DNA of 56,023 bases, counting the filler, from Jimgerdemannia flammicorona (Eukaryota): NCBI GenBank assembly GCA_003990765.1. It is 2 parts of 2 records of this genome, joined end to end, with 100 filler letters (N's around TTAATTAATTAA, not from the genome) between each part and the next. Parts side by side here need not be neighbours in the genome. Positions count along the whole stretch, not along the records: positions 28,074 to 56,023 come from RBNJ01000591.1; 1 more part is not named here. One strand, given 5' to 3'. The translations under genes and the position numbers were made by a program. Under the pieces are notes generated by a model, which was given only the letters and a program-made list of their open reading frames with translations, did not search any database and was not told where the DNA came from. Shown piece by piece: positions 10,964 to 55,339 of the stretch. The first letter of the stretch is position 1. Each line of letters opens with the position of its first letter.

Positions 10964-12713
10964 TATAGATATATACAGGCTAAGATGTATACCATCATAC
11001 TTTGGTAAGAAGTAATTTATTATATTTATCAACAATTATATATATAAGATATATGTATAATTCTTATTGGCAAAGAGCAAAGCCTTAGAAAAATTCAAAG
11101 AATTTAAGACAATGATTGAGAATGAAACAAGATATAGAATATGTAATATATAATTAGATAATGGATGTAAATATATCAATAATACATTCAGACAATTCCT
11201 GAAAAATCATAGTATATAATATCAAAATAGCTCTCTATATATGTATCTCAGCAAAACAGTGTGGCCAAGTAATTTAACTATATAGTTGTAAAAATGGCTT
11301 ATATAATAATTTAGTAGCCAAACTGAGCAGAAGCTATTAATATGGCAATATATATACATAATTAATACATATCTCAAGTACTAAGCAAGAAAGTTGGCAA
11401 TAACAATAAATATAAGAATGATGATCTCAGCTCTAAAGAATTATAAAGCAGATCTAAGCTCAATATATTATATTTATATATATTTAGATGCAATGTATAT
11501 ATCTTTGATAAAAAGAATATCAATCAGCACAAATTCAAGCCAAAAGCTGTCAAGCACATATTTCTTGGATATTCTAGCAAGGTTTATAGACTCTGGGATC
11601 TATGTAAGTAGTGTATATATAGTTAGTTTGCATAATATACAGTTCAGAGAAAAAAGAGAATATTAAGAGATCTGAGTAGATATACTGGTCAATATATCTA
11701 CATCAACATCTATATCCCAGCAAGTATAACTAAAGCAATAACTATCATTAATCTATACAGTGATCAATCAAAATTATTTTCAACTGCTATATATATCTAA
11801 GCCTGAACCAGAGTTGTCTGAGCTAAGAATAATAGAGATAGAAGTTGAAGATGATAATGGCAAAACCTCTACTAGTGAGATCCTTCACAAAGAGTAAACA
11901 AAAGCAAAAGTATTCCAATGTTTACTGAGAATCTCATTCTGATTTAGATAGTTATCAGAACATACTAGTGAGCTCTAGATAACAGCAATGATAGAACTAC
12001 ATAGGCTATGCCAAAGCATACAAATGCACATATATTGTGATATCTTCTGGTAAGCCAAATACATACAACAAAGCTGTAACCAGCTCTGAAAGTGAGAAAT
12101 AGAAATGCAATATAGATGAGGAATATAATTCACTCATCAAGAATTGTATATGGGATCTTATATCTCTTTTATCAAATTGCCAAATAATTAGATCTAAGTA
12201 GGTCTATAGAATTAAGCATAAAAGTGATAGAAGTGTAAAGTGATATAAAGCTCATTTTGTTACTAATGATTATTTACAGAATTATAGTATAGACTATGAT
12301 AAGATATTGTTACCAGTATTTAAGCTTACTTAAAATACTCCTTATGATTGGCACACTATATAATCTGGAAATCCATCAAATGGATATAAAGACAGTATTC
12401 CTGAATAGAGATATAGATATCAAACTATATATCCATCAACTGCAAGGATATGAAAAAGGCAAACTTATATATAAATTACATAAAGAATTATATAGTATTT
12501 AGTAGTATGACTATAGAATAAAAGAATTGACAAACACCTCTTCAATAATGGATTATGTATTATAAAGTAGATAATTATATATATATCCAATATTATGATA
12601 ACAGCATAGTATTCATTTGTATTTGGGTTGATGATATCATCATTATTACTAGAAAGAATAGGCTTAACAGAGTCAAAGAAGCCCTATGCTGAGAATTTAA
12701 GATGATAGATATG

Positions 12714-16505: not shown

Positions 16506-17686
16506 CAGGGTCCTTTCTCTGCTACCTTACTGGTCACAAGGTTTGGTAGGCGACCTTTTGAGTCCCCTTTCCCCTATTATTACCCCCTCTACCTTGGGTT
16601 GGTTTGCTGTGCCTGCAGGGGCATAGTGGGAGGAGGGCAATGGTGATGAGTTGCCCCTTTATCAGTGTCAGATCAGTGCTTCCTCCACTTTTTCATGGAT
16701 TCTGGTGCCTTCAGCTGCGTCTGGGGTGTACCCATTTTGGTGCGGCATCTTCTTCCTTTTACCATTGCCAACAAGGTGTTGTCTCAGTATATCTCAGGCT
16801 ACATAGAGAGTCGGCCAACCTTGGGTGTCAAGTGCTCAGTATAGGTTACCTGCAGGTCCTTGGTGCCTGTGGTGGGGCCCTCTGGCTTTGGCGAGCTTCC
16901 TGGTGAGTGTGGTTCTGGCATAGGTGACTGCTTTTCAGGTGTTGTTGGGATGGGAGGGGAGATGGCTGTCACAGATAGGTGGAAGGACAATAACAGTGAA
17001 CCAGTAGGGTGCCAGGCTGGGGGCAGTCATCAGGGCTGGGGCAGGTGCTGCTTCAGTGGGGCCTTTTGATTGGTGCGGCATGGTTAGGTGGTAGGTGTCA
17101 CTATCAGCTTCTTTTGGCAGTCAGCGGGGTTGGGCCCCAGTCATCAGGGGGGGTCAGGAGGCCCGAGGCTACCTATTTCAGGTATCTTGGCTGCACTCAA
17201 CTGGAACCAGGAGCTGACATGGCAATGTGATCGAGGCCCACAGGCTTGAGTAGTGAGGTATTGGGGGTTTTCTCCCACCTCACATATAAGTCCTTTACTC
17301 ACCTCAACTGGGAGAACCAGACCCTACCCACCATATTGTGCTTTGATAAGAGTTTTTTATTTGCCTGTCATTCTCTTTGGGGTGGTAGGGGCTATTCTAT
17401 TCGGCTCGGGCATAGCCTTGTATATACATTGGGTTCTCAGGCATGCACTTTCAGTCGTTGGCATATGGTTGGGTTTCCCCTGGTGGTAGGGAGAGCATGG
17501 TGTGTAGAATGAGGTGCAGGCCTATCGGCCCTGCTGTGCCTGGTATGGTCGAGCTGCTGGATAATAGCTAGCCTAGGTTAATGGGGGGGCAGTGCTTGGT
17601 GGGTGGTGGGAGAGGGTTTTGGCCTATATAGTCTAGGTAAAAATCCACAGGACATGAGTCTGTTAAAAAAAAAAAAAAAAAAAAAA
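16506..17686 (+). mobile_element. 1.18-kb non-autonomous poly(A) retroposon (SINE-like), copy 1
   Basis: A22 tail at 17665-17686. Perfect 15-bp TSD GTAAGAGAAAGTACT at 16491-16505 and 17687-17701. Confidence 0.9.
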
Positions 17687-18349
17687 GTAAGAGAAAGTAC
17701 TGTTGAAAAGCTAGATAAAGGAAGTAGAGCATAGTATCTATATATACAGAAAATTGCAAATATTCAACAGACTATATAAAGGTCAGTCAATATATATCTC
17801 ATTATATATAAAGATTTAGAGATAGATATTATAGAGACTTTTGAATTTTTATTAAAAGATAGATATCAAGTTCAGGAAATATCTTCAGCTTAGACCTCCT
17901 CATCATCTTTGAACTTCTCAATATCTTCAACCTCCTCAACCAAGCAAGGATTTATTTTTACAACTTTAGAATAATTTCAAAAACTCTCAAAACATAGCTT
18001 GATTTAATATATAAGATAAATAAGTGGGACTTGAAACTGTTTATCTTATATATTTATAATAATATTGGATACTGATATATTAGAGGTCATTTTTTTGTAG
18101 ATAGAGAAAATAGTACTATTATAACTTAGGCACTTAAGATGGTTTGAAGATTTGTATCTACATAATTAGAGGCTTTAGTATTTTCTTCCTGATCAGAGTA
18201 CTGTTGAAGCCAATGCTATCTATAAGGGTTTTCAAAACTTAAAAGCTAGTAAGATGGAATGTAAAATTATTCTTTATATAGTTTATATTATATAAATATA
18301 GATATCAAAATATATAGTGATACTGCTCATAACAAGATAATCCTGACTT

Positions 18350-19052
18350 TGTATTATCAAACCAGAACTAATTATGAGAAGAATATACAATAAGCAATTG
18401 AACTTGCTCTTACTCTAGCTGGCAAGTTATGTCAAAACTAGCTTCATTTATATGTAGACTGGCTCTACTATAAAGTTGCATCAAAAGACTAGAATCAGGC
18501 TCTCTGGAAATGGCAGATAGTGTAGATTCTTCAGAATCAGACTCACTGGAAATAGATAAATAACTCAGCAGCAGATTTCACAAATGGCAGCAAAGTTCTT
18601 TACTCAAACTCAGCAGATTTCTTAGATTCTTCAGACTTATCTGGCAAGTAAACCAAAAACAGACTCATTCTTTATATCAGAAAGTGAACCAGAGTGAAAG
18701 GTAAGATCACAATCTTCTAGCAGTAGCTGTAGAGCTCCTCTTGAAGTATGGTAGGCAGACTTGTCTTTTGCTTTGAATTTTAGACTGAGGTTTATTCACA
18801 CTTATCTCTAGGGTATTTTATATATTTGTAGTTGCTATCTATGACAAGTATACCCAGATAGTACAGTATACCCACTCAGTATAGTATATTTACTCAATAC
18901 AGTATACCTACTCAGTACAGGTAAATAAACTGTTTCTGATATCTCTGGCTAATTATACAAGTTGATACAGTAAAATAATCTTAGTTGCTTAGAGCACTAG
19001 ATATGGTATATGGCTAATTTATGATTTTAGCAGTATAACTCTGATATTCATC
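18350..19052 (-). repeat. Divergent, decayed LTR related to the element A LTRs (boundaries approximate)
   Basis: 18580-18840 aligns with 9830-10135 (e.g. GGCAGACTTGTCTTTTGCTTTG, CTGAGGTTTATTCAC). 18-bp tandem repeats sit at the equivalent position. Confidence 0.65.
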
Positions 19053-20916
19053 AAACTACTCATTCAGAGATAATAGAAGCTACTAGCTATAAGAAAAAAG
19101 AAGATATCTTCTCTAAGATAAGGAGTTACTTCTCTGGGAAAGATCTGAGATATTCTTATCAAGTTTAGAGGAGTAACTATTTCAGTGAATATATTTGTCA
19201 TGAATGTCACCAACTATGATATTCTCATCAATAATCAGTGGCTTCACAAGACTAAGGCTATAATCAATATAAATGTCCAGAAGATACAGATTGTCTACTG
19301 AGAACAAAAGATGTAAATTTCAATCAATATTAATAAAGAAGTACTCTCTGAGATAAAGGAAGAAGATAGTGATCAATAAGAAGTCTATATAATAACTACT
19401 CAGAAAAAGAAAAAAAAGGTCAGATGGATTAGCAAAGAAGATTGGTATAAGAAGATTACTAAAAAATATACTCTATAAGAAGTTTGTTATTATTGAATTC
19501 AGATATACTATATATATATATAAAGTATATAGATAAGTACTACAAATATATTGTTAAGATTCAAAAGATTCATTATCAAGAGAAGAAAAGAAAGCAGAAG
19601 TAGCAAGAAAAGAAAGATCAGAAGGATAAATCACTAGTTCTTCTAGAAGATAGTGATGATGAAGAAGAAATTAAGGTTATAATTCAGAGAATTTACCCTA
19701 ATACAGTTATATCAGAATATAAGTCTGAAAATGTAGCTGGTATAGATATTATAATTGTTGAAGAGATAGTTCTACAGATAACTAATCTACTTATAACTAA
19801 TCTAGAGATAACTATTTCCAAGGGTCATATCAGAATACTCAAGAAATAAAATAGCCTAGCCAAAATGAAACTTTGATTAAAGGAGGAGTTATTAATTCTA
19901 ATTATATTAGAGAAATCCTACTCATTGTCAGGAACCATAATCTCATAATTTTATTTATAGTTAAGAAGAAGAACTAACTTATATATATACTAGTCTTTCT
20001 GGTACTATAATCTAAGATTATAGAAGTAAAAAAGCTAGATGAAATAGGAACAGAAAGAAAAGAATTTAGATATATAGGAAGAGGAGTTTTCATTAGTATC
20101 AATATTACTAAACTAGACTACAGAAAGGAGAAAATTGCAGAGAAGTATAGCTCTATATACTATTTAAAATAAATTTCCATTCAAGAAGGAACCTAAGAGC
20201 TATTATATGAATTTGAAGATATCCCTGCAACTGATTTCAAGAATACTAAAGAAAAGATACCATACTACTATTATGATATAGATATAGGAGATATGGAGCC
20301 AATCTATCCAATGATAAGACCAATTTCACTAGTATATCATAAATAGTTCAGAGAAGAGATCAAGCAGATATAAGAAGCTACCATCATCAAAGAGGTGAAG
20401 TACAATACTATACTACCTTGTATTTATACTCTGAATTCTATCAAAGCTGTCCCACTAAAGAAGTCAGTAAATATCAGCCTTCATTATCATAGATAGAATC
20501 TATGTCTAGCTATAAATACTATTTAAAATATTTAATACTCTAGTAAGTTTCCAGAGAATAATAAATAACATCTTTTAAAATAATATAGAAAAATAGATAG
20601 TAGTCTATATAGATCATGTAATTATCTTCAATATGCCAGTCAAAGAACATCTGAACTATATTTACTGAATCTTACAAATATTGAGAGAATATGATATATT
20701 TATTAAGCTAAAGAGATATAAGTTTGTAGAAATTAAAATCTCCTACCTTGGATATATTATCAATCAGATTAAAACTCATACAGACTGTATCAAGATTTAA
20801 GCAGTGGTACCCTATCTAAGATCCACTATAGTTACTAAAGCTCAAGCCTATATAGGGCTCACTACTATTATAAGAGGATTATTAAAGTATTTACCAATAT
20901 TACAGTTTATATCTAT

Positions 20917-21408: not shown

Positions 21409-24400
21409 TGATTTAAGACGAATCCCTCACTTTCAAGCTGAACAACGAACAACCGCCACTACCTGAACAACCATACAAACTGAGCCCTAATATCCAGACA
21501 AGATAGATATAAGACCACCAGTATTCCACGGATATACCTCAGATGAATCAATCATCACCTTCATTGATGATTTCAAGCAGTATACTGCTGTAAGGACTCT
21601 GACAGCAGCACAGCAAGTAGCCCTCATGCCCTTCAGCCTATGAGATCCTGCCAGAGCAGCATTCACAGCCACAACCCATACAGGAAATAATGCCAATGCT
21701 ATACTGACAGCACAGAAGACCTGGCTCTGAAATACATATTATACAGACAAGATCAAGCAAGCCCTGAAGGATCAGCTCAATACAATATGCCAAGGAATGA
21801 GCAAAGATCCAAACACATTCTATACCAGAATTCGATATCAGATAATCCTTGCAGATTATGCAACTGCTATCCGAGATCAAGTAGCTGAAGCAACCTTCAT
21901 GAAAGGAGTCCATCCAGAAATAGCCATGGCCATCTGCTCATCACCAGTGATTCTGGATCTGCCACAGAAGGTCACCTATGCTCAGCAATACTAGATAGCC
22001 AGACATCCACAAGACCATACAATGGAAAGAGTTACAGGAGACAGAATTGAGGCACCTAAGTTAACCAGTGTGATCCCCACCACAATGATCAATCAAAACA
22101 CACCTCAGCCAAAAGCTACAGAGCAGCAAAAGAACAGTGACCCTATGGAGGAACTTGCCAAAAGATTTGCTGAAATGACTGCTCACCTGGGAGATGTGGT
22201 AAAGGAAATTCGAGGAAGAGACTGCTGCCCTGTTCAGAAGTTTGCCACCACCTCAGATAAGGAGAAAGGTACCTGCTACAGCTGTGGAGAAGAAGGCCAC
22301 TACTCCTATGAATGCATGAGTGAAACTAAGCACAAGGCTCAACCAAGCAATGCTACACAAAACAAGGAGCAGGCCAATACAATTACCTTCGAGGAAATTG
22401 GAGATTCTGATGAAGAAGAATGGGAGGCCTATCCTGCTCAGACTACTAAGAAGGATGTTTGCAAGGAATCCTACAAGAGACCACCAGGAAGACCCAAGAA
22501 GAACCCAGTAGAAAAGCAGATGGAAATGGCCACTGAAAGCCAGGCTGAAGAGATGGACCAGGATATGGAGCTGGAACAAGCAGTTCAAGATATCATCTGA
22601 GGAACCACCCCAGCCAGTGAAGGAGAAAAAGAAAAGAAGCTTTGCAAGACCAAGACCTTCAAGTATGATATCTTCAAGGACCTCAGTCAACAAAAAGTCA
22701 ATGCAACCTTTGGTCAGCTCACTGAAATCCCAACATTCAGACAGCAAATAAGGTTTGGACTTGCTAAAACAACTAAGGAACAAGGATGGAAGATAACTGA
22801 GGCCAATAATGTTCAAGAGGACTCAGGAGAAGAAAGTGAGGACAATTGCAAAACCTCTGCATATGCAACATGCCAAATTGAAGATGGAATCTTTGAAGCC
22901 ATCATTGATACAGGAGTGGGAGGATGTCTCCTCAGCAAGAAGGCAGCAGACTGCCTAGGTTGGGATGTGGAAGAAGCAACTAAGCTGGTATTTGTCACAG
23001 CTGATGGCACAAGAGCCACACCTCTGGGAAAGATCCAAGATGTTCCTATTAAGATTGGAGGAGCAACCATCCCAGTAGATGTAATTGTAACCAATGCCAC
23101 CAACTATGACATCCTCATCAGCAATCAGTGGCTTCACAAAGCCAAGGCAGTAATTGATCTCAATGCCCAGAAGATGCAGATCACCTACCAGGGACAGAAG
23201 ATATGAATTTCCATTAATGTCAACAAAGGAGTCCTGCCTGACATGGAGGAAGAAGAAAGTGAGCAAGAGGAAGCTTATATGGTGACTACTCCAAAGAAGA
23301 AGAAAGTTGGATAGATAAGTGAAAAAAAATGGTGCAAGAAGATCACAGAAGGCTATATACCACAAGGAGTCTGTCTTCATGGGATCAAGATGTACTGCAT
23401 AGAGCATGTCAATGATTGCTACCAGTGCACCATCGGAATCAAGAAGATCCACCAGGAAAGAAGGCAGAAAGCTCTCGAAAAACAGATCAGAGAAGAAGAG
23501 AAGGAGGAAGATGATGAACCACCAGCCCTCCTGGAGGACAGTGATGATGAAGGAGAAATCAAGGTCAAGATTCGAAAGATCCACCCTGACGCAGTCTTGC
23601 CAGAATACAAGTCAGAAAATGCAGCCGGAATGGATATCGCTACAGTAGAAGAGACTGTACTGGAACCCCAGACAACCACCCTACTTGCAACCGGACTGGA
23701 GATGACTATTCCAAAAGACCATGTTGGGATACTCAAGACAAGAAGTAGCCTGGCCAGAAGTGAAATTACTATCGAAGGAGAAGTCATCGATTCAGACTAT
23801 ACTGGAGAAATTCTGCTCATTGCTAGGAATCGCAATCCTACAATTCCATTCCCAGTTAGAAAAGTTCCACTACCACTTGGCTGGAAGACACTTCACCATC
23901 TAGACGGACCACTCAGCTCTCACCTGGCTACTGACAACTGGACAACCTAAAGGAATCTATGCCAGATGGATAATGAAGTTACAAGCCTATGATGTAACCA
24001 TTGTACACTGCCCTGGAAGAACAAATTCCAATGCAGATACTCTCTCATGGACACCTCGAAACACCTCCAACCAACAAACCAATCATGAATAAAGAACTCT
24101 ACTATAGAATCATCACATATCTGGGACAGCGAAAGATGCCCCAATATCTGGAAGAATGGATGCAAATGATTATCAACAGAACATAGAAACAATTCGAAAC
24201 CGATGGAGAAACACTGAAGAAAGGAAAACTACTAGTCATACCAGAACACAAGAAGGAGCAAGTGATGAAATCAGTACATGAACTTGGCCATCTAGGAGGA
24301 ACGAATACATATGACAAGGCAAGAAGAACAATGTGGTGGCCAGGGATGGAGGAAGATATCAGACAATTCATCAAGACCTGCAACAAATGCCAGAAACAGA

Positions 24401-25770: not shown

Positions 25771-26234
25771 TGGTATAGCTAGATTCGGAAGAAGGAAATA
25801 GGGAACAGATACTTGATCACACCTAGTCCCAAAGTAGTATAGCCACATAGTTAGCAGTCCTCGATTTCACCACTTGCTAAATATTTTGCAAAGTGCAAGA
25901 TCGAGCTTTCCGATATAGTATAGCATTTTGCAACTGATGAAATATTTCGCAAAGTGTTAAATGACTCATAACTTAGCCATATAACCCAGTAACCATCTTA
26001 TAGCTAGCAAAACTTATATAAATAACTCAGTATCTTCGAGCGAATAAACCTTAGATCGAAATAGTTCAAAGCAAAGAGATAGCAAAGGAACTAGTAAGTC
26101 TGTGGGTAGATATACTTTGAACTCACCCACCCTCCCCTGTAACTTCAAGAGACTCTGCGGGAGTCAGAACAGTCAAAGTTTTCAAGGTACAGAAATCTGA
26201 CGTACTTTCAAGAGTAAGCATCTGCTATGTTATA
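25766..26234 (+). repeat. 3' LTR of element B
   Basis: TGTAATGG...TGTTATA (terminal CA mutated to TA). Confidence 0.92.
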
Positions 26235-27480
26235 CTATATATAAATATTTAAGAAGTATACTAAGTTTTAATAGACCAATAGGTAGTAATAAGCTTTTGA
26301 ATGTCTCAAAGTCTAATTGATCCAAGCACTCATCTTGAGAAGGCCTAACTAGTCTTAAGAATTGATTCTGTAGACAGATATATAAAATCTCAATTAGACT
26401 AGAAGTTGTCCTTGTTCAAAAGAAGAATATAGTTAAATATATAATTATATATCTTAGCTGAGAAACTTGCAAAGAAGAAAGAGAATATGAATCCTATAAG
26501 TTAAAATATCTTAGAGTTATTTGGGCTGAAGAAAAGTTTCACAAGAAGATACTTTATCATTCTGACTGACCAATCAGCCCTCACCTAGCTATTGAACACA
26601 AGTAAATTCAAAAAAATATTTGTAAATTGGATCATAAAGCTATATATAAGTCTATGACATTATATATCACTTAGAAAGAACTAATAATAATATAGATACT
26701 CTCTTATAGATATTCTAAAGAATCTACAATTAGTAAAACCAAAATATATAAGGAACTCTATTTCAGAATTATCAACTATCTACAATAAAAGATATCCTAA
26801 TATCTGGAAGAATAGATATGAATAATTATTAATAGAACCTGGAAATAATTTGAAACTGGTAAAGATATACTAAAGAAAGAAAAATTACTAGTTATACTAG
26901 AGTATAAGAAGAAATAAGTAATGAAGTTAGTATACAAAACTGGTTATCTAGAAGAAACAAATATATATAAAGTAAGAAGAAAAATGTAGTAATTAAGATT
27001 AGTGAAAGATATCAGATAATTTGTCAAAATCTATAATAAATAGCAAAAACAGAAATAATTAAATACTAGGATCAGTAGATATAGGACCAGTATTATTTAC
27101 TCATATTGTAATAAATATAATTAGTCTCCTACTCTGGAAATTGACTGGCAACTAATATGTCATTATTATTATAGACCTCTTTATAAAATTGATAGAAGCA
27201 GAATTTCTCAGAGAAGCCAATATACAGTTAATTGCTGATTTCTTCTACAGGGAAATCATCTGCTGATTTAAGACTCCAGAGAAAGTAATAATAGATAGAG
27301 GAACAGAATTTTTGAAAGATTCTCTACAAAAAGTACTAAATTTAATATATTTGAATGACAGCTTATCATCTTTAGAAAAATAGATAGATAGAAAGAACTA
27401 ATAAGACTCTCAAGAATATTATTACTAGGATCTATAATAACTATGAAAATTGGAACTACTATCTGCCAATAGCATTATCT

Positions 27481-27973
27481 CGGAGGTTTGGGGACCGCAG
27501 ATGTGGTGATGGGACAGGCTTCTATTGGGTGGTACTCTGGTGGAGGACTTTCAGCTTGGCGAGGGACTAGAGTGCCTGCGAGACCTAGGTGGGGACCTGT
27601 GGCCTGAAGCCTGGCAGAGGGTTGGTATCGGGGAAGAGTGGGACTGGAATGGGCTCTGGATTTGGAGCAAACAGGTGAGGCAGTGGCTGCCCCCCAAGTT
27701 CTGGGTGGCATGGTGGCGAATCCTACGACGTAATGTGATGCTGAACTATCGGTCTGGCCACTTGGTGGATGGTGGGGTATTCGAATGCGAGGATTGTTTT
27801 AATGTTGGTCAAGAGGGAGGAGTGTTACAAACGCCTGAACATTGGCTTGGCAAGTGTGAGGTTTTGGAGGAGTTCTGGGGGCGCATAATGTACTGGTTAG
27901 GGTTGGGGGATGGGGGTGGAGAGGGAGGGGGGAGATGGGGAGTGCTTCGCCGGCAATTGGTGGGTGGGGTTGG
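27481..27973 (+). mobile_element. 5'-truncated, CpG-retaining LINE (ORF2 C-terminal zf-RVT-like region), cut by the contig end
   Basis: W..LW....LPPKFWVAWWRILRR...CEDC...TPEHWLGKC....FW fits the L1/Tx1 C-terminal CCHC zinc finger. It interrupts the element C integrase. Confidence 0.75.
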
Positions 27974-28073
27974 NNNNNNNNNNNNNNNNNNNNNNNNNNN
28001 NNNNNNNNNNNNNNNNNTTAATTAATTAANNNNNNNNNNNNNNNNNNNNNNNNNNNNNNNNNNNNNNNNNNNN
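27974..28073. other. Artificial contig-joining spacer
   Basis: Exactly 100 nt: 44 N + TTAATTAATTAA (stop codons in all six frames) + 44 N. Confidence 0.95.
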
Positions 28074-28137
28074 TTTTGCACTTCTCTTGTTGGTTTACTC
28101 ATTGTGGAATGCAATTTCAATTTCTCCTTTTTGCAGG

Positions 28138-31892: not shown

Positions 31893-32030
31893 CGTTAAGT
31901 GGATTCATTCAAACGCCAAATTATTGGTGGGAGCGAGAAAAGGCGTAAAAGCAGTGAGCAGGCTTCTCAGCTGCTGACATCATGACAATTATTATTGTTT
32001 TTTTTTTTTTGTTTTTTTTTTTCAGGTTTT

Positions 32031-32077
<47 letters not shown>

Positions 32078-32768
32078 TTTTTTTTTTTCAGGTTTATTTC
32101 TCTCTTTCCTTGTTACTCTGGTTATCTATTTGCGTTCTGGCTGTTTTCATTTGATACAGTCACATTTTGCATACACCCCTCTCCCTTTTCTGCATTCATG
32201 AAGTTCGTTGATTTGGGGGGTTTGAGCATTAGTACCGGAGTCTTTAATCAACCCTTTTTTTATTCATTTTTCTGGTCGGACAATATTTTCGCTTGTAAAC
32301 CGATTCATGGGTTTTCTGGATACCATGTCCGTAATCTAGTTTTTATTATATATGTAATCTTTAGTGCATCGTTGCCTACATCGTCTGTTTATTCTTGCCG
32401 TCTTTGTCGCATTCTTCCCTGTATCAACATTTTCACATCATTTCCAGTTTACCACATTCACTTTTGTCATTTGTTCATCGCTCTCTGATCTTGCTCATCA
32501 TCGTTCTCGTAGCATCTTTGTCCAAATCAATTGCATGCCAGCACTCCATGTTCAAAATGAAAAAAGAGAGAGAGAAAAGAGAAGAATCCATATTCCTTCT
32601 CCGTAACCCGCCCCACCAAAATCTTGACTTCTTCCTTGTGTTTGCGATCATGCTCGAGCACTATGTATTTCCATGGGGCTTTTCGCAGTTGAACTACATT
32701 TGCCATATCTGCATGTCTAATATGTGGTTGTCGAGATTGTTACCTTAGCAATTAGCTACAGATGCAAG

Positions 32769-33034
32769 CTAGTCCCCGGCTTGTACACGTCGGGTACTTT
32801 CACCCCCCCCCGAATTTGAGTTAGAGTTTGGTTTGCTTGGGTGGTGACCAGAATAAACATTAAATGAGGTAACAGGCCATGATCACTGATCTGGGGTTGC
32901 CGTGCTGGATGGTCCAAAAAGAGCGACAACCGCATTCTTCCTTAAGGCTTTGGATCGGAAGTTTAGTATCTGGTAAAAATCAAGCAAATTAAGGATAAAA
33001 TGATTACTTACTATATAAGGGGGATGTCACAGTT
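32769..33034 (-). ncRNA. Candidate omegaRNA / transposon 3' end downstream of Fanzor1
   Basis: Position 3' of the Fanzor1 stop. Stems at 32937-32961 (CTTCC/GGAAG), 32895-32931 (GGTTGTCG/CGGCAACC with inner TGGA/TCCA) and 32775-32794. Function is inferred. Confidence 0.45.
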
Positions 33035-34584
33035 CTAAGCCGGACGAGCGAAGACCTCAGGCATCTGGTTTCCATTCATCGCCATGTGGAGAGCAATGGA
33101 TCGGAGGTTCTTGGCAGCATTAATGTCTCTGGGATCCAGTCGTCACCTGTTCGCTCACGGACACGTTCCAGGGAGTCCAGCATCTGACACTTGGAGCACA
33201 CCTTGGACGAGCAGAATTTGGGGACCTTGATGGAGCACAGAATACTTCTCAGGACACACCAGCTCTCTTCCCTTTTATGGTAGGCAAGAAGATGGCATCT
33301 CCGAATGCCACCACTATCTGCTTCAGTTCATTGTGAGGTTCTGTGCACTTCCACTTTGTGCTGCATGGACTGGCATCAATAGAATCACCAGAGGGAGACA
33401 GGTTTGACTCAGAGGCTCCTTGCCCCTTTCTCTGCTACCTTACTGGTCACAAGGTTTGGTAGGCAACCTTCCAAGTTCCCTTTCCCCTATTATTATCCCC
33501 TCTACTTCAGGTTGGTTTGCTGTGCCTGTATGGATATGGTGGGAGGAGGGCAATGGTGATGAGTTACCTCTTTATTAGTGTCAGATTGGTGTCTTCTCCA
33601 CTTTTTTGCAGTTTCTGATGCCTTCAGCTATGTCTGGAGTATATCCGTTTTGGTGCGGCACCTTCTTCCTTTTGCTATTGCTAATAAGGTGGTGTCTCGG
33701 TGTATTCCAGGCTATATAGGGAGTCAGCCGACCTTAGGCATCAAGTGCTTAGTATAGATTATCTGCAGGTTCTTGGTACTTGTAGTGGGGCCCTCTGGCT
33801 TTGGTGAGCTTCCCGACAAGCTAGTTCTGGCATAGGTGACTGCTTTTCAGGTGTTGTTGGGATGAGAGGAGAGATGGTCATCACAGATAGGAGAAAGGGT
33901 AATAACAGTGGGCCAGTAGGGTGCCAGGCTGGGGACAGTTATCAGGGCTGGGGCAGGTGCTGTTTTGGTGGGGTCTTTTGATTGGTGTGGTATAGTTAGG
34001 TAGTAGGTATCACTCTCGGCTCTTTTGGTGGGTTGGTGGATTAGGTCCTAGTCATCAGGGGGGGTCAGGGGGCCTGAGGCTACCTATTTTAGGCATCTTG
34101 GCTATACTTAACTGGAACTGAGAGCTGACATGGCAATGTGATCAAGGCCTACAGGCTTGAGTAGTAGAGTATTGGGGGTCTCCTCCCACCTTATATATAA
34201 GTTCTTTACTCACCTCGACTGAGAAAACTAGGCCCTATCTACCATATTATACTTTGATGAGAGTTTTTCTTTGTCTGTTATTCTCTTTGGGGTGGCAGGG
34301 GCTATTCTATTCAGCTCAGGCATGGCCTTATACATATGTTGGGTTCTCGGGCATATACTTTCAGTCATTGGCATATGGTTGGATTTCCCCTGGTGGTAGG
34401 AAGAGCATAGTGTGCAGAATGAGATACAGGCCACTATAGACCCTGTTGCACCTGGTATGGTCAAGCTGCTGAACAATAGCTAGCCTAGGTTAATGGGGGG
34501 GCAGTGCTTGGTGGGTAGTAGGGAAGGGTTTTGGCCTATATAGTCTAGGTTCTCTTCTAATAAAAATCTACAGAACATGAGTCC

Positions 34585-34652
<68 letters not shown>

Positions 34653-36640
34653 CTCAGAGACTCCTACTATCTCTTCACCTAATCTACTATACTTCTTGCT
34701 ACCAGTTGTAAACTGCTGGCACACCTCTCTGCCAGAGCCTTCTGGTATCCTCAGTACTGCTAAAACTGTAATTTCCTCTATCTGTTATTATAGAATTATA
34801 CCAGTATCTTGTATTTCTAGAGATTCTGCTTAACAAAGGTATTGAATTTGGTAATACTGGTTATCTTGTAGATTATTTAGGATTACTTGCAGTCTATTCT
34901 CCTTCTTTCTCCATTCCTCTTTCTTTTTCTTGGCCTTGTTTCACCTAGTAATATAGTAGAACTTCTTAATTAAGATCTTTTATATCTTATATGCTACATT
35001 TGCATATCTGTCTATTATGATGAATATATCTTTAGATTGACACTCTATAGCCAGTCTCTCATAAGATCTAACTGAATATTTATCATCATCTTCTCTACTA
35101 CTACTGTCTACTTAGACTAATTAAGGAGAAAGTTTACTACTATTTTATTACTTCTGACTATATTCCAGAACTAATACTTCTGAGTATTTATATCTTTCAA
35201 GAATACAATATCAATTTTGATAAAGTTAAATATATTTCAGAATAGTTCATAGTCATCTATATCTATGGTCTTGCCTTTTATATATCAGATGAGACAGATC
35301 AATATTTGTCTATCAATCTTAATAAACTATTATTAATATAAATATAAGAAGTAGAATATAAACACTAGACCTCCTTTGAAGCAATATTCATCTTTGGTCA
35401 AAATATCTTTATCTCAATCTTTAACTATATCTTATAAATAAGTTTTACTAAATATAAGTGAGACTTTTTAGATAATTGACTAATACAGGCCTTGGGCAAA
35501 GTATTTATCTAGAAATATATGATAGAATAATAGATACTAATAATAAGTCTTCTTGTATAGTCTTTGATAACTACTTCTACTTTACCAGCTTGGTCTGCTC
35601 TTTTCTCCTTATCTAGCTTAGTGGTAGATTAGTTCTTTTAGATAGTTTATATATATATATAATATATCTTTTTTTCAAAAGACTTGAGTATATGATAAAA
35701 GAAAGATATATATATATATATACATATATGTATATAAGACTTAGTAAATAGCACTTCTTTTATTACTAATATTAGTTTTAGCATAATATTCTTAGTGATC
35801 TCATTAATGATTATCTTTAGCCTATTTGTTTTCTTTATAAAAAAAAGACTATACTCTAGTCAGATTAGTTCATCTCTTATAAATAAAAGTAGTTAGCCTC
35901 TTCAAATCCTTATTGGCTATTTTGATATTCTTTTTGTTGACAGTCTCATAAAGCTGAAAGAATATATACTTCTTTATCTTTATATCAAAATTAGCAATAA
36001 TGTAATTTTGGATATATATTTTTTTTTTATATTTACTATAGATTTAAATAGAGTATATCAGAATAGACCTATATTAGATATAGGGAGAATATTGGGACAG
36101 AGATTTATAACTAGATATATATTTGCTATAAGTTAGTAAAAGTTATTTTTTATAGATCAAGTAGATATTTGAGATCTTTATATATTATTAGCTATATGTA
36201 ATATATATATAAGAAGCTCTGTCTATAGCAATTACTCTCTAAGGTACTATACTTCTCTATATAGTATAAGAAGTAGTAATTAGTAAGCAGTATAGTCTTA
36301 TATATAATATTATAGATATTTTTGATAGTAACAGAAATCTTCTATTATAGACCTAATATCTAACAGATTCTCTCATACTTAGTTTTGATAGTAAAGACTT
36401 TAAGATTACTATTAAAGACCAACTTTGTCTATTGATACTTATTCTTCTTATAATAGAATAAAGCTTATAAGTATAAAAGTATATATCTTGAGCAGAGTTA
36501 TTGTTCTTAATATATATAAGATAAGGATAAAGAGATCACTGTTTGAAGGTCTGGATGATATCTTCAGCTCACTATACTATCCTCTTTTTTGCTCTAATAT
36601 TTTCTTTCTCTATCTTTGTTTGGAATTTTTACTTTAGTAT
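33035..36640 (-). pseudogene. Fanzor1 (eukaryotic TnpB-derived RNA-guided nuclease), degenerate, split by a retroposon at 33421-34665
   Basis: Little-mutated C-terminus: IVVAFGDA, KVPKFCSSKVCSKC, RDINAAKNL and MPEVFARP*. Middle region FY..R.RKL.F..Y.G.QKALAEVC..FTTGSKKY. RuvC-I relic L*SVNL (from LWGVDP) at 35033-35050. Possible start ATACTAAAGTAAAAA (from MPKRK) at 36640. Confidence 0.85.
33421..34650 (+). mobile_element. Poly(A) retroposon, copy 2, inserted in Fanzor1
   Basis: Homologous to 16506-17686. Long A tail ends at 34650. TSD GACTCAGAG(G/A)CTCCT at 33406-33420 and 34651-34665. Confidence 0.9.
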
Positions 36641-36732
36641 TTGTAAAAAATATATATATACTAGGAGGAGAGAAGACTGAGAGTCAAAACTGATAAAATT
36701 ATATATAGTGATTTAATAGATATATTATCGTC

Positions 36733-37013
36733 ATAATTAGTACTTCTAATAAATCAAATCAAATCAAAGAATTAATTTGAAATTTGATTTAAACTCTATT
36801 TTTCAAAATGTAATAACTTAATAAAAACATATCCAAATTTAACAATTGTTAGCTTGTTATATTGCTATATATAAGAGAAATCTAATAAGCTAAAAATTAT
36901 TAAATTTTGATATATTTTCATTAAGTTATTATATTTTAAAAAATAGAGTTCAAATTAGATCTTCAATTTAATTTAATTCAAATTGATTCAATTTGTTTAA
37001 GAGTACTAATTAT
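36733..37013. repeat. AT-rich foldback / long-TIR MITE-like element
   Basis: Terminal ATAATTAGTACT / AGTACTAATTAT, plus inverted arms of more than 100 bp (36788-36848 pairs with 36895-36955). Confidence 0.7.
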
Positions 37014-37432
37014 AATGTTACTACTGAAGTAAATTTTCCCTATATTATTAATACTTTTTAATTAAATATACTAGTTACTTTGCTACAGTCTTGGCTCTCC
37101 AATCTTTTTATTTATCCTTCCTATCATAGATATTTTTCTTTGATAGTAGCTTTCTTGATATTCTTGATAGACTATTTCTAATGCTTGGCTTTCATCAAGT
37201 TGATGTAAATTTAAATGAATCTCTAGTCTTTGATCTGTCATTTATTAACTTTAACTATTTTCTCTTTTTATAACTTTTCTCTAAAGTATCTTTTATAGTA
37301 ATATTTATATTACTATAGTAAAGAACATCAAGAATAGTACATATATTTACATATTATCACCTTACTCACTTATATTATACTAGTTTGCTAATCTCATGAT
37401 ATATAATAGAGATCTTGTCCTCTATCTATACT

Positions 37433-37700
37433 TATCCCTTAGATGGTATGGAAACGTCTTTTAAGCAGTGATTTTTTAATTGAAAAAATCTGATTTTTTC
37501 AAGTTTGCATTTTCTGTTAGAAATATAACTCAATTCATCTAAATTCAAAATTTTATTTTTATATAAAATTTTACCCAAAGGTAAAAAAATATATAAAAAA
37601 TCAATAATTTCAATGTTTTTGAAAAGTTATTATTATTTTCAGACTTATGAATTTTCAAAAATTTGCAGCCATATTTGGCTACATTACCATCTAAGGGATA
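37433..37700. mobile_element. MITE with perfect 16-bp TIRs
   Basis: TATCCCTTAGATGGTA / TACCATCTAAGGGATA. The outer TA may be the TSD. Related to 10716-10963. Confidence 0.8.
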
Positions 37701-37724
37701 GCTTTACTTTAACTTCTATCTTTA

Positions 37725-37737
<13 letters not shown>

Positions 37738-37755
<18 letters not shown>

Positions 37756-38927
37756 TTTTAATAGACTCAAAGTTCTGTGGATTTTTATTAGAAGGGAACC
37801 TAGACTATATAGACCAAAACTCTCTCCCACCACCCATCAAGCACTGCCTCCCCATTAACCTAGGCTAGCTATTGTCCAGCAGCTTGACCATGCCAGGTGC
37901 AGTAGAGTCTATAGTGGCCCATATCTCATTCTATATACTATACTCTTCCTATCACCAGAGAGAACTCAGATATGTCAATAACCAAAAGTATATGCCCAAG
38001 ATCCCATTGTATGTACAAGACTATGTCTGAGCTGAATAGAATAGCTTCTGCCACCTTAAAGAGAATGACAGACAAAGAAAAACTCTCATCAAAGTATATC
38101 ATAGTAGATAGGACCTGATTCTCCCAGTCAAGGTGAGTAAAGGACTTACATATAAGATAAGAAGAGACCCCCAATACCCCACTACTCAAGCCTGTAGGCC
38201 TTGATCATATTGCTATATCAGCTTCCAGTTTTAGTTAAGTATAGCCAAGATACCTGAAATGGGTAGCCTCAGGCCCCCTGACCCCCTCAATGACCAGGAC
38301 CCAATCTGCTGAATTGTTAAAAGAAGCTGAGAGTGACACCTACCACCTAACTGCTCTGCACCAATCAAAAGATCTCATCAAAGCAGTACCTGCCTAGCTC
38401 CAATAACTGCTCTCAGCCTAATACTCTACTGGTTCACTGTAATTACTCTTCCTTTTATCTGTAATGGCCATCTCCCCTCTCATCCTAATATTACCTAAAA
38501 AACAGTCACCTACACCAGAACTGTACTTGCTGGGAAGCTTACCAAAGCCAGAGGGCCACACTATAGGCACCAAGGACCTATAGATAATCTACATTAGGCA
38601 CTTGATGTCTAAGGTCGATTAACTCTCTATATAACTCATAACATACTGAGACAGCATCTTGTTGGTGACAATAAAAGGAAGAAAGTACTGCACCAAAATA
38701 GATGTACTCCAGATGCAGCCAAAGGCACCAGAAACTATGAAAAAGTAAAGAAGATACTAATCAGATACTAATAAAAGAGCAACTCATCACTATTACCTCT
38801 CTTCCTCCCACTGCTCTGCAATAGATACAGCAAACCAACCCAAGGTAGAGGGGGTAATAATTATGGAAAGTGGACTTGGAAGGTTGCCTACCAAACCATT
38901 GTGACTGGTAAGATAGTAGAGAAAGAG
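37738..38927 (-). mobile_element. Poly(A) retroposon, copy 3
   Basis: Poly(T) at 37738-37759, followed by the full-length reverse complement of copies 1 and 2. Confidence 0.88.
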
Positions 38928-39412
38928 ATATATTAGTATATATTTCTTATAAACTTATGGTTTATTAAGAAAGTCTACATTCTTATCTTTCTTGCTCTTT
39001 TCATCCATAACTACAAATACAATAACATACAAACTAGCAAGCTCAGGGCCCCAATTATGTTGCTCATTATATTGTATATTGGTTTTTATCTTTTTTTTTT
39101 TTTTAATGGACTTTATATTAGTTTTTATCTATCAGTAAATCTAATATGCTTAGAAAGAATACCTCTGGACAGCCAGGTGCACATGCTGGTCTGGCTATTT
39201 TTATTGCACCCTCATGATTCGAATTGACAACAGGTTCGGAATGCTGATAAATACATTTAAATCAAACAGATTGCTAGCATGCCTATGGAATTTTGAACTG
39301 TATTCTTAATAAACTCACCAAAGCCGGCCCGTGACTGCTTCCTCTATAGATTGTATTTCCACACTTATCCTCTCTTGTCCTTTATTCCTTTATTCCGGCT
39401 TCGCTTTCGACA

Positions 39413-43329: not shown

Positions 43330-43440
43330 TTCCTTATCAAGCTTCACATTATTGTTTAAGTCTAAATTAGGATATATACAAGTCCCACGAGGGAGCAGGC
43401 TCCCGCGCCAGCCTTTTCAGGCAGACTTTTTCCGAATAGT
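43330..43440 (-). ncRNA. Candidate omegaRNA at the 3' end of the IS607-like element
   Basis: GC-rich, CpG-retaining island at the stop codon: GGCTGGCGCGGGAGCCTGCTCCCTCGTGGGAC, with a GGGAG/CTCCC stem. Function is inferred from TnpB/Fanzor architecture. Confidence 0.45.
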
Positions 43441-44910
43441 GAGGTAATGAAGGAGAATGTTGCAAGTGCCATTGAAATTCTGGTCAAGCTTTGTCTGACA
43501 TGCCAGACAGCAAAACACCTTAGACCCGCCTAGGCCATAGTGGAGATATCCATGGCACCCACATGTCTTGGAAGTGTACTCTTCTGTGCAGAGGATGACC
43601 TGGCACCATGAGTGCTTGCATACTTTATGAATCAGATGCTGGCAAAAGTGGAAGTGTGACTATGTGTACATTGCACATGCAGTCTTAGAATAAATATAAC
43701 ATTGCTCTGTCTGATCATCTCCTGTGTATGGAACTCTGGCAAGAGAATGATATGATAGTTCTCATATAGCTACCATGTGAGCTTATGATGGCAGTCATTG
43801 ATCAAGTATTGAATATACTTGTGAATACATAGTATAATATGTTGCAACCTGTAATTAGTAAATTTATGTATATTTCCTTTAATATCTGATCTCTTTTCTA
43901 TTATTAAAAAGGCCAAAAATGATATATATATGCTAAACTGATCTATAGTACTTATGTTTATTTATCTTCTTATAAATACTATCTCACTTACTCTGAAGCC
44001 TGTCATATTTATGGCTCAGTCTATAGATATAGGTAATATCATTCTTCTCTCACTTAATTGCTAACTCACTTGAGTCATATCTAGTTATAAATATTTGTAT
44101 ATCAGAATTCAATACAATAACCCCTATACCTCTTTTATCAGATATAGGGCTTTGGCTCTTGGTCTATACATCAAAGAGCATGAGAATATAGAGATAGAAT
44201 TCACCAAGATAATTCATTATAAGCTAGCTATTATATTTAAGATTAACTGGTAGAGGCTCAGTAGACCTCATATTAGGGAGAAATACAAATTCGCTATATA
44301 ATTTCCTCCAGTACTTGAAAAGTACTACAATTAACTGAAAAAAAATAAAAATAAAAATAAAATAAAATAAAAATAATTTATTGAAAATTATTAAAACTAA
44401 TATGAATTTAATGTAAAATCAAAATGATTTTCACTTGTTGATAATTCTTTTTAAAATAAAACTACATTTGAAATATATATTTTACTATAAAGTTAGAGGT
44501 ATACTCCTTGAGAAGATTATTTATAACCTCATTATGAATGTTATATGGTATCTCCAGAATTTACTCATTATTGTTCTTAAAGTTAGAGATATTGAGATAC
44601 TGTACTCTCAGATTCTTCTTGCAGTGTTTTACACCTTCATTTTGAACTATAGTAAGATACTGATTGTATGTCTATTGTGCTGTTCTCATTTTTGATTATT
44701 AATATTATAAGCATGGTTATTTTAAGAGATAAAAAAAAAAAAAAAGGTAAATTCACCCAACACACCAATATATAATATTGTTGTGGAAAAAAAAATACTC
44801 AAGAGAACAATTATTATATCCTGAGCTTCTGCTGCTCCTCATAGATAGAAAAGAGACAGATTTTTTATACTTTAACTACTGACTTCTTAGAGATCTTAGT
44901 TCTCTTTAAT
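43417..44910 (-). pseudogene. Fanzor2 / IS607 TnpB-like RNA-guided nuclease with 2-3 introns, degenerate
   Basis: KICLFSIYEEQQKL (HTH-OrfB-like), TAQ*TYNQ, LGEFYL, RuvC-I relic VIVLNSDIQIFITRYD (from VIALDPGVRTFMTGYD), DCHHKL, IILLPEF, EEYTSKTCG, GGSKVFCC..C, DQNFNGTCNI (from DRDFNGARNI). Stop at 43417-43419. Confidence 0.9.
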
Positions 44911-45514
44911 AACTTCTCATCTCTGCTTATAGTTGGCAGCTGAGTATAGTCTGTTATATCACACTACAAAAACTGTAATAATGATAAACAGGTTCTCTAT
45001 AAATTCTCTAGTCTTGGAGTTATCAATGGTGCTAATGTTGAACTAAGAATCATAAGCTAAGTTCTGTTCTTAAAGATCCATTCTATGAGTTCTGATCCAA
45101 AATGACACAACTGGTCTTTTTGAGTAATCACTACTTCTTTGACTCCTCCTGCATATACTCATTCCAAAAGGACAACAAATCTTCTGTATTTCCAGTTAAG
45201 CCCCAAGCTAATATCACTGACAATCTCATATTCTGAGAAATACTATTGTAGTTCAGTGATTTGTCATTTAAGATCTCTTTATTGGTACTCAGAACTGACT
45301 CTGGTATAGCAGATCTTGGCCTTTTGTGTAGATTGTTATTGTTTTACAAGTTGGTTGTCACTAAACAATCTGCAGTAGAGTAAAGTCATTTGCCACTAGA
45401 GGTTCTGATGAAAGACACATGCCCTGAGACAGTCCACCACTGCAGAGTTTCAACTGAGACATCATAGGTTTGTTTGATACTACTTGTGCTTGTGTAGGTG
45501 GTATTTCGAGCCAG
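44820..45514 (-). pseudogene. tnpA: IS607-family TnpA: MerR-like HTH + serine recombinase, degenerate
   Basis: YDVSVETLQWW...IRTSSGK*LY (HTH), KICYTRVSS (catalytic Ser, 45291-45308), DLK*QI, SDISLGLNWK, VVITQKDQLCHFGSELIEWIF (from KDRLCRFG). Confidence 0.9.
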
Positions 45515-46417
45515 GTTTTTTTTTTTTTTTTTTGGAGATTTGCTGAGGAATGTACAGAATCCGCGCATGTGGTAGATTGCATTTATATGTTTTGCACGTG
45601 TTAAATATGAAAGCCAAACTGTCACTCACATATCCCTATTAATTTCCATAGGAAAGTGAGCTTTATTCTGGAACGTTCAGAAACGCTGCAACGGTACATA
45701 CGTGGAAACTACGACTCCGGATGGCTTGAGTCGGACCCAGCCATTAATATCTCGATTCCAGAGGACGCCAGAATTTAGGGAGCAGATGTTGTCTCCTGTT
45801 TGGTTATCGCAGGTCCTTCTCGAGACCCCAGATGAATGTCCATTGTTTCTGTGTCCAGATTATTGTGGCACAAGTCGCTCTATTGCTTGGGGAGGCGGGC
45901 TTGGATTAGGTTGACATGATTAACATTGTAGAGATGGATGGAATTGACGCCGCTGCCAGTGACGAAGTATGCTTGATGGACAGAAAGAAGAGTCATTGGG
46001 GAGAGGATTTTTATAGTATCTCAGGACGGAAAGGAACAAGGCAAGGCAAGGCAAGGTGAAACGAAATAAGATGAAAAGGAATAATGCCTTGCAAAACGAT
46101 AAGGAGAAGAAAAAAAGGAGCAACACAAGGCAGGACAAAAAGGGCAAAGAGGACAAAGAGGACAAAAAGGACAAAGAGCAATACTCGGCAAGGCGTATAC
46201 ATTGGCCATCAATAGCCAAAGAGGGACCCCATTAGCCATTAGCCACAAATCATTGAACGATGGACGATTTGATTGCCAAAATAGACGCCAGTGAGCAATT
46301 TCCTTTGTTTATTACTAGAACAATCCTGAAACCGTGGCGACATAGAAGTTGGCTTGACAGCCGTTGTAACAAAATTCAAAGCAGGCTCTTTGGATATGAT
46401 AGTATAAGGCTTTCTGC

Positions 46418-54719: not shown

Positions 54720-54782
<63 letters not shown>

Positions 54783-55339
54783 GACTCAATATTCTGCAGA
54801 TTTTATTAAAAAGGAACCTAAACTATATAGGCCAAAACTCTCCCCTACTATTATCTTCCCATTAATCTAGATTACTGAATTATCTTGCAGTCTCACTATT
54901 CTTGCTATATATATCAGATATGCTGATTTCTATTATATAGATTAGACTTATCTATTTATCAAGGCTAGATTATCTTGATCATACATAAGAGTATATCTAT
55001 ATGTCAGATCTAATAATGCTGAGACTGAATAAGAAATAGCCCTCTGAACTCCAAATAAAGATCTAAGATAAAGAAAAATCTCCCAACTAGTCAACAGAAG
55101 ATAGAATAGATTTAGAGTGAGTGAGTAAAAAACTTATATATAAGATCTCTTCAAAAGGACTGACATATGGACTAAGGCTTAAAAAAGCCCTACTCTCACT
55201 CTTTGAGCCTGTGGACCTCAATTACATTACTATATCAGTTCTTAGTTCTAGTTGGATACTACTAAATGAGAGGTTTTACTCCTCAAGTCTGTAAGTCTCA
55301 ATTATATTACTGTATCAGCTCTTAATTTTAGTTAGATAC
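54720..55339 (-). mobile_element. Divergent relative of the poly(A) retroposon, decayed, interrupted by an LTR
   Basis: Poly(T) at 54720-54779. The next ~100 bp and 55190-55260 match copy 3; the middle differs. A ~57-bp block is duplicated (55205-55261 and 55285-55341). Confidence 0.65.

Follow-up and report, generated by a model that had tools for sequence, protein, structure and literature searches.

A retroposon-split, hypermutated Fanzor1 pseudogene in the genome of Jimgerdemannia flammicorona and its intact relatives from metagenomes

The stretch of DNA analysed here, referred to as the window, comprises 56,023 nt of the genome of Jimgerdemannia flammicorona (assembly GCA_003990765.1) and consists of two parts joined by filler, of which positions 28,074 to 56,023 belong to record RBNJ01000591.1. 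On the minus strand, it harbours a pseudogene that occupies positions 33035..36640 including a retroposon lying inside it. The pseudogene reaches from a decayed start codon (ATA, 36640–36638) to a TAG stop codon (33037–33035); its extent was obtained from the ordered tblastn matches of the related proteins P0061–P0064, with start and stop read directly. We have little doubt that the locus is a single, full-length and dead copy of a gene for the RNA-guided nuclease Fanzor1. Homology, lesions and mutation spectrum are matters of observation, as is the class of fold to which the relatives belong. A sequence-only reading had proposed such a relic, and its coordinates, length estimate, start and junction were all correct.

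The N-terminal part of the gene (34666..36640, minus strand, 1975 nt) is heavily hypermutated and has a G + C content of 0.24–0.32. It carries a decayed basic N-terminus, then a Cys/His motif and then a helical REC-like half, as well as the WED motif, the RuvC-I motif and remnants of QKALAE.C..FTTGSKKY. The C-terminal part (33035..33420, minus strand, 386 nt) is not hypermutated, has a G + C content of 0.52 and contains two frame changes. The whole block from 34666 to 37737 is AT-rich (G + C content 0.21–0.32 vs 0.52 in the tail) with stops in all frames, and a stop-to-stop listing of the relic region yields only short pieces, the longest of 83 aa.

Subtraction of 1245 bp from the span 33035–36640 leaves 2361 nt, which corresponds to 787 codons. 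This agrees with the approximately 2.36 kb and 780 codons expected from the sequence alone and with the 786–812 aa of the relatives. A start resembling MPKRK had also been suggested. Nothing but G>A and C>T changes separates the codons ATA CTA AAG TAA AAA at 36640–36626 from codons for M-P-K-R-K, and the N-termini of the relatives read MPKRNR, MPEKRK or MPTKRN, which is in line with that suggestion.

The gene is split 386 nt before its stop codon by a non-coding poly(A) retroposon (33421..34650, plus strand; about 1.19 kb plus about 64 A), which was identified from its blastn family and the poly(A) read. The insertion measures 1230 bp and its A run ends at 34650. It is flanked by 15-nt direct repeats spaced 1245 bp apart, representing a target-site duplication: the first copy, GACTCAGAGGCTCCT, lies at 33406..33420 and the second at 34651..34665, identical at 14 of 15 positions with G>A as the sole difference. 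The relative P0001 lacks the retroposon and reads LEEEMAGASESN through the empty site in one frame, and it matches the window on both sides of the junction (GEEIVGVSES on one, GASESN on the other). The direct repeats, the poly(A) and the empty-site relative thus confirm the claimed 1245-bp insertion with its target-site duplication.

The C-terminal part contains three groups of motifs, each in its own frame. The first is IVVAFGDA...GKRAGVS, with VVAFGDA at 33314–33294 (minus strand). The second is KVPKFCSSKVCSKC, with a Lys codon at 33219–33217 where relatives carry Glu; the window reads KFCSSKVCSKC here (K-x6-CSKC, 33219–33187, minus strand), so that Lys replaces the alternative Glu. The third is RDINAAKNLRSIALHMAMNGNQMPEVFARPA, followed by the stop. 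RDINAAKN is found at 33130–33107 and PEVFARPA ends in the TAG stop at 33037–33035 (both minus strand). Upstream of the insertion, YQKALAERC and EVCQQFTTGSKKYS were observed in two frames at around 34745–34689 (minus strand). The decayed RuvC-I motif at around 35044–35030 (minus strand) reads WL*SVNLK, compared to VWGVDPGI in relatives; G>A and C>T changes suffice to derive SVNLK from GVDPG, and the RuvC-I Asp has thereby become Asn. The WED motif at around 35152–35144 (minus strand) reads FWNIVRSNK, with SDG changed to SNK. All motifs named in the sequence-only reading, namely VVAFGDA, the Lys before CSKC, RDINAAKN and P.VFARP* on one side of the insertion and QKALAE.C..FTTGSKKY with the decayed RuvC-I motif on the other, were recovered at the positions given for them.

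Compared to the metagenomic locus L003, about 55 nt are missing between CSKC and RDINAAKN, by which the second CxxC is lost and the frame is shifted. A further deletion, small and likewise accompanied by a frame change, is found between GKRAGVS and KVPKF. In the 648 codons aligned to P0062 and its DNA (L001), 33 in-frame stops were counted, 25 of which replace a Gln (9), Trp (4) or Arg (12) of P0062, and the matches of the relatives change frame at least six times along the relic. Two of the three catalytic residues are absent. With its stops, frame changes, D->N and E->K replacements, second-CxxC deletion and retroposon, the window copy cannot work.

The frame ...DDDQFPGML of P0001 aligns with ...GDDWIPETL of the window at 65% identity over 40 residues, the latter being an out-of-frame reading of the window RD... 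motif. The second CxxC therefore appears to be lost in P0001 too, and the deletion probably predates the window copy.

A word-based search with a 61-aa piece of the window yielded a single relative, P0001 (158 aa, E 9.3e-10). It is a single frame from VVAFGDA through VPEFYSSKVCSKC and retains the Glu that the window lost. With P0001 as the query, 60 matches were obtained in an exhaustive HMMER search; P0006 and P0009, leucine-rich repeat/fibronectin proteins matching the low-complexity start of P0001, were dropped. P0002 (447 aa) led to the four full-length proteins P0061 (796 aa), P0062 (786 aa), P0063 (804 aa) and P0064 (812 aa), and a further search added eight fragments. The intact relatives come from metagenomes, with five metagenome contigs encoding members of the family. 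The L001 gene is one uninterrupted frame, and L002 features an ATG-started open reading frame of 842 codons. In L001, the P0062 frame stays open for 36 more codons upstream (613–720), up to an ATG (MSDRKRAAEE...); the deposited start of P0062, for which a GTG was taken, is too late.

When P0062 was compared to the 56-kb window with tblastn, E values of 8.8e-43 and 8e-20 were obtained for the 5' and the 3' set of matches. Its residues 52–163, 197–246, 252–401, 401–626, 654–693, 703–735 and 752–780 match in order from 36455 to 33044. At the N-terminal end, P0064 residues 6–53 match 36622–36479, and at the other end family matches extend to residue ~788 at 33041, so that the aligned range runs from residue 6 to ~788. 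Each of P0002 and P0061–P0064 aligns in order over both halves. Since the same proteins span both halves and P0001 crosses the junction, the halves constitute one gene; that they might belong to different families, the outcome named in advance as contrary to a single relic, was thereby tested and not found. No second copy of the relic was detected in the window at the DNA level, and no second family member at the protein level (searched with 60 proteins, then with 12 relatives, E up to 5).

According to passages of PMC10711439, Fanzors have D-P-G in RuvC-I and, instead of the canonical RuvC-II Glu, a Glu placed six residues ahead of the first CxxC. In Fanzor1, the REC domains are in addition enlarged and the WED domain bears a T-D-G motif. 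The relatives comply with this arrangement. GVDPG is invariant in the five sequences of alignment A1 (residues 516–520 in P0061), and P0061 reads EFRSSKVCSRC at 715–725, with Glu six residues before the first CxxC. The relatives show VVAFGD at the old Glu position, E-x6-CxxC, a second CxxC and then WNRDVNAARN. The WED motif is F-W-N-x-[VI]-R-S-D-G in P0002 and P0061–P0064; P0018, P0021, P0026 and P0032 have T-D-G, and P0029 has T-D-R. The domain PF07282 was found above its cutoff (34.9–49 vs 26.3 bits) in P0004, P0016, P0018, P0021, P0026, P0029, P0061 and P0064, and not in P0002, a frameshifted fragment.

Profile and structure comparisons provide additional means to assign the family. Alignment A2 comprises 38 of the 71 proteins, chosen by hand, without P0001, P0003, P0006, P0009 and most short fragments. 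A search of the complete set of PDB sequences with the profile of these 38 relatives placed the Fanzor1 proteins of Spizellomyces (SpuFz1, E 4.1e-11) and Parasitella (PpFz1, 6e-11) on top, followed by LaTranC (3.3e-8), Guillardia Fanzor1 (GtFz1, 1.5e-7) and mimivirus Fanzor2 (5.7e-7), with TnpB and Cas12f weaker. The AlphaFold2 model of the intact relative P0061 (not of the relic) from the same alignment reached a predicted local distance difference test (pLDDT) score of 83.3 and a predicted template modelling (TM) score of 0.75. In a Foldseek comparison of this model with the PDB, ranks 1–7 were all Fanzor1 (E 4e-17 to 1.3e-14); Fanzor2 followed at rank 8 (E 2.9e-5), and Cas12f and TnpB came after it.

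Based on fold, profile ranking, the S/T-D-G motif and length, the family of the modelled relative, and with it the relic, is Fanzor1, which supports the full-length Fanzor1 relic of the sequence-only reading. The alignment to Fanzor1 RuvC domains, by which that reading might have failed, likewise left it standing. One element of it needs correction: the Glu before the zinc finger is present in the family, as claimed, but it is not specific to Fanzor1, being common to Fanzor1, Fanzor2 and pro-Fanzor TnpBs according to PMC10711439.

SpuFz1 (Spizellomyces punctatus; PDB 8GKH, 9CEU–9CEZ) is the best match of P0061 in both comparisons, with a TM score of 0.70 on target length over about 750 aligned columns, although the identity is only 16%. 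Within the profile alignment with SpuFz1 fall the K-T...F-Y...Q-K helix region, Glu-x6-CxxC and the second zinc pair, as well as the RuvC-III region and the R-P-x-x-F tail at the C-terminus. The P0061 family is about 200 aa longer than the modelled SpuFz chain (590–607 residues resolved), and an N-terminal CxxC...H...C..H motif is a feature of this family. In contrast to SpuFz1, the window copy is dead and has no detected omega RNA or inverted repeats. The Fanzor1 proteins of Parasitella parasitica and Guillardia theta (PDB 9CF0/9CF1 and 9CER; Foldseek ranks 2, 6 and 7, E 1e-16 to 1.3e-14) have the same domain order as the P0061 family, with lower TM scores of 0.42–0.54 and identities of 12–15%. 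Fanzor2 (mimivirus, 9B0L), TnpB (ISDra2, 8H1J/8EXA) and Cas12f have the RuvC fold, the zinc ribbon and PF07282 in common with the family, but they match much less well (Foldseek E 3e-5 to 1e-4, TM score on the query ~0.2), and they are shorter and lack its long N-terminal helical half.

Compared to L001, the 5' part of the relic (34666–36640, 1638 sites) shows 189 C>T and 256 G>A changes against 42 T>C and 59 A>G, i.e. 445 changes against 101 in the reverse direction. In the 3' part (33035–33420, 306 sites), the corresponding numbers are 18, 26, 14 and 14. Transversions amount to 274 of 1638 sites (16.7%) in the 5' part and 45 of 306 (14.7%) in the 3' part; this similar divergence indicates that both parts are of the same age relative to L001. 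When sequences were reduced to purine/pyrimidine coding, the mutated reading frame still scored 347 against L001, while shuffles reached at most 56. In 150-nt bins of the 5' part, 41–82% of the C/G sites are changed, with both strands and every sequence context affected.

The hypermutation ends exactly at the retroposon. The 5' bin touching it shows 0.43 vs 0.10 in the reverse direction, the three 3' bins show 0.25–0.31 vs 0.19–0.23, and directly across the site the values drop from 0.43 vs 0.10 to 0.31 vs 0.23. Among contexts, CpA (with TpG) is changed most (0.69), followed by CpC and CpG (0.54 each) and CpT (0.34). The AT-rich 5' part has a TpA/ApT index of 1.1–1.3 and a (CpA+TpG)/(ApC+GpT) index of 0.70–1.02. 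Upstream, the AT-rich block continues to 37737, where it meets a retroposon copy in opposite orientation. Private changes of the retroposon copies are of the C>T/G>A type in 45 of 69 cases for copy A and 110 of 156 for copy C, an excess that is mild and even, and no graded spread of hypermutation into the flanking retroposons was observed.

Several results weigh against a Fanzor1 gene at this locus. Pieces of the window alone gave no significant match: an 83-aa piece reached only E 0.07 (13.7 bits) in Pfam, and PDB searches with three window pieces found no nuclease, only Schlafen, DARPins and an oxidoreductase; the family assignment therefore rests on the relatives. The shallow profile from A1 (five sequences) matched only LaTranC in the PDB (E 0.025) and no Fanzor1, the first AlphaFold model from five sequences was poor (pLDDT 49), and P0029 alone matched SpuFz1 only at E 0.96. 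Rfam returned no omega RNA in the window or in L001–L004 (the metagenome contigs end 87–184 nt past the gene); between the window flanks no terminal inverted repeats were found, even in purine/pyrimidine coding, and no transposase was found at the relic. A reading in which the relic is Fanzor2 or TnpB-like, of IS607-type or prokaryotic origin, would suit the A1 profile matching only LaTranC, the detection of only the generic PF07282 by Pfam, and the occurrence of both D-P-G and the alternative Glu in Fanzor2 and pro-Fanzor TnpBs as well (PMC10711439). We nevertheless judge this reading very improbable. Seven Fanzor1 chains precede Fanzor2, Cas12f and TnpB by 9–12 orders of magnitude in Foldseek E value, the deeper profile puts two fungal Fanzor1 proteins on top, and a length of ~800 aa and the S/T-D-G motif point the same way, as does a eukaryotic setting with long terminal repeat (LTR) elements, poly(A) retroposons and splice-like signals past the stop. 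That the halves are unrelated pieces joined by chance, or the motifs chance matches in AT-rich low-complexity DNA, might be suspected from the insignificant single-piece searches and from the sharp contrast in G + C content (0.52 vs 0.24–0.32). The probability of this is negligible: ordered matches of the same proteins extend over both halves, with E values down to 8.8e-43, which already refutes chance joining, and the target-site duplication, the empty site spanned by P0001 and the similar transversion divergence from L001 (16.7% and 14.7%) agree with one gene.

As to the agent of decay, repeat-induced point mutation (RIP) is characterised by C>T/G>A changes on both strands of duplicated DNA, a CpA preference, the RID machinery and the presence of other repeat copies. 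The relic resembles RIP-degraded relics of filamentous fungi in its two-strand C>T/G>A excess, its stops at former Gln, Trp and Arg codons, its AT-richness and its RIP-type indices. It differs from them in its weak context preference, with CpT least affected. The order CpA > CpC = CpG > CpT is unlike that of Neurospora and counts against RIP proper; the term is used here by analogy. Slow deamination of methylated cytosines or AT drift in heterochromatic repeats, with an accidental coincidence of the boundary with the retroposon, is the alternative. It would account for CpG being changed as often as CpA when the neighbouring base of the relative is used (0.65 vs 0.59), for the mild excess without a gradient towards the AT-rich block in the retroposon copies, and for further AT-rich blocks elsewhere in the window. 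RIP is not known to occur in Mucoromycota, the commonest phylum in the nearest named cluster of relatives (a lead only), which also counts in its favour. With 41–82% of C/G sites changed per bin on both strands in all contexts, an abrupt step at the insertion site (0.43 vs 0.10 on one side, 0.31 vs 0.23 on the other) and RIP-like composite indices (1.1–1.3 and 0.70–1.02), we hold this alternative to be distinctly unlikely, though far from negligible. A full-text search found no paper pairing Fanzor with repeat-induced point mutation.

With a RIP-like process as the agent, the likely history would start in a parent lineage already devoid of the second CxxC, a loss shared by P0001. On the simplest reading, the retroposon would have inserted next, before the RIP-like process acted. 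This process, working on both strands of duplex DNA, would then have destroyed the long 5' part, while the 386-nt tail past the retroposon would have escaped as too short or too isolated for recognition.

Directly past the stop codon lies a 64-nt block (32948..33011, minus strand; alignment A3) that looks like a spliceosomal intron in a 3' untranslated region, as judged from its splice-like signals. In the window, these are GTAAGT (33011–33006), TACTAAAC (32968–32961) and AAG (32950–32948). GTAAGT is found in the window and in four metagenome loci, and the downstream signals in the three loci whose contigs extend that far; there, TACTAAAC follows GTAAGT after about 40–75 nt and CTGCAG about 20 nt later, with AAG in place of CTGCAG in the window. 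Apart from this block, no non-coding DNA past the stop is conserved. No consensus RNA structure was found in the conserved 3' block; the range used for L002 in that analysis left out the 5' splice-like site, which alignment A3 includes.

About 950 nt past the stop, at 31995–32090 (minus strand), an interrupted poly(A) tract of approximately 95 nt with repeated CCTGAAAAA units was observed, possibly the tail of another retroposon. A processed retrocopy was considered and rejected, based on the distance of this tract from the stop and the intron-like block still being there. On the other side, an imperfect palindrome of 281 nt (36733..37013) lies in AT-rich DNA 90–370 nt upstream of the start, with a self reverse-complement identity of 79.7% over 286 columns. 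The upstream flank of the window copy shows no homology to those of L001 or L002. Upstream of the genes in L001 and L002, clustered short inverted motifs were seen, CTGAAACTG / CAGTTTCAG.

The retroposon family has further copies in the window at 16512–17686 (plus strand) and 37738–38925 (minus strand), the poly(A) end of the latter forming the upstream boundary of the AT-rich block, and 3' fragments at 54720–54850 and 39083–39112 (both minus strand). Blastn identities within the family are 84.6% and 80.7% for the near-full copies, and 90.9%. In all three long copies, AT-rich DNA adjoins the poly(A) end, and copies A and C have many common T/A states where copy B has C/G.

A second PF07282 remnant with a TnpB/Fanzor-type C-terminus (...VILCTEEYTSKTCGCHG...CCLACQTKLDQNFNGTCNILL, 32 bits, E 1.4e-7) is located at 43420–43659 on the minus strand. 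It shows only 25% identity to P0018 and differs from the family of the relic. It is probably the 'first' relic implied when the locus at 33035–36640 was called second and independent, a description that fits these values.

The window consists of eukaryotic DNA with many repeats, and the nearest Atlas cluster, a lead only, is of eukaryotic origin as well. LTR-retrotransposon remnants are present at 2410–5701 (minus strand) and 21995–23950 (plus strand), one with reverse transcriptase and aspartyl protease, the other with a zinc knuckle, a protease and a dUTPase domain. AT-rich blocks with a G + C content of 0.28–0.35, probably other hypermutated repeats, occur at 10000–12000, 18000–20000, 26000–28000 and 44000–46000. 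A 190-nt stretch at 37480–37666 matches 10750–10937 in reverse at 74%.

By homology, the intact members of the family (~790–840 aa) would be omega-RNA-guided double-strand DNA endonucleases carried on eukaryotic transposons; their nuclease activity is expected from sequence. From the N-terminal side, the predicted order of parts would be a basic N-terminus resembling a nuclear localisation signal (MPKRN...), the CxxC...H...C..H motif, a long helical REC-like half and the WED domain with S/T-D-G. These would be followed by a split RuvC domain with a CxxC...CxxC zinc ribbon, whose acidic residues would be the Asp of GVDPG, the alternative Glu before the first CxxC and the Asp of RDxNAA. In P0061, residues 26–52 read C-P-T-C...H-x-H-S-R...C-P-[YF]-[HR] after the basic N-terminus, and the motif is found at the same place in P0062–P0065, P0071 and P0021. 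It resembles a small zinc knuckle; the confidence of the model is low there (pLDDT ~50).

An undescribed subfamily of fungal Fanzor1 may be represented by the relic, P0061–P0064, L001 and L002, its intact copies from the environment may be active as RNA-guided nucleases and the insertion may have limited RIP-like recognition; taken jointly, we put these three statements forward tentatively and regard them as somewhat doubtful. Features cited for a subfamily are the identity of about 16% to SpuFz1, the N-terminal zinc-knuckle-like motif (also present in the distant P0021) and the intron-like block past the stop. The supplementary tables of Fanzor surveys may already list the P0061–P0064 family.

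A passage of PMC10432273 describes Fanzor1 as 'highly spread in fungi'. Dead Fanzor1 copies are expected in fungus-like genomes, and in this respect the relic is ordinary. With its two or more TnpB-type remnants, a dead Fanzor1 among them, the 56-kb window provides an annotation point for the genome and suggests that Fanzor-bearing elements once invaded the lineage and were then silenced by hypermutation and retroposon insertion. Current knowledge is not overturned, and wider interest attaches solely to the intact relatives and to the mutational boundary. Through the relic, a small family of intact proteins of ~800 aa was reached that bears no descriptive name in the sources; with their predicted Fanzor1-like fold, the intact P0061-type proteins are candidates as compact eukaryotic genome-editing nucleases. 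If the proposed history is true, the sharp mutational boundary would be a natural demonstration of an insertion cutting a repeat below the size for RIP-like recognition, and the 386-nt tail would be a 'fossil' of the unmutated gene.

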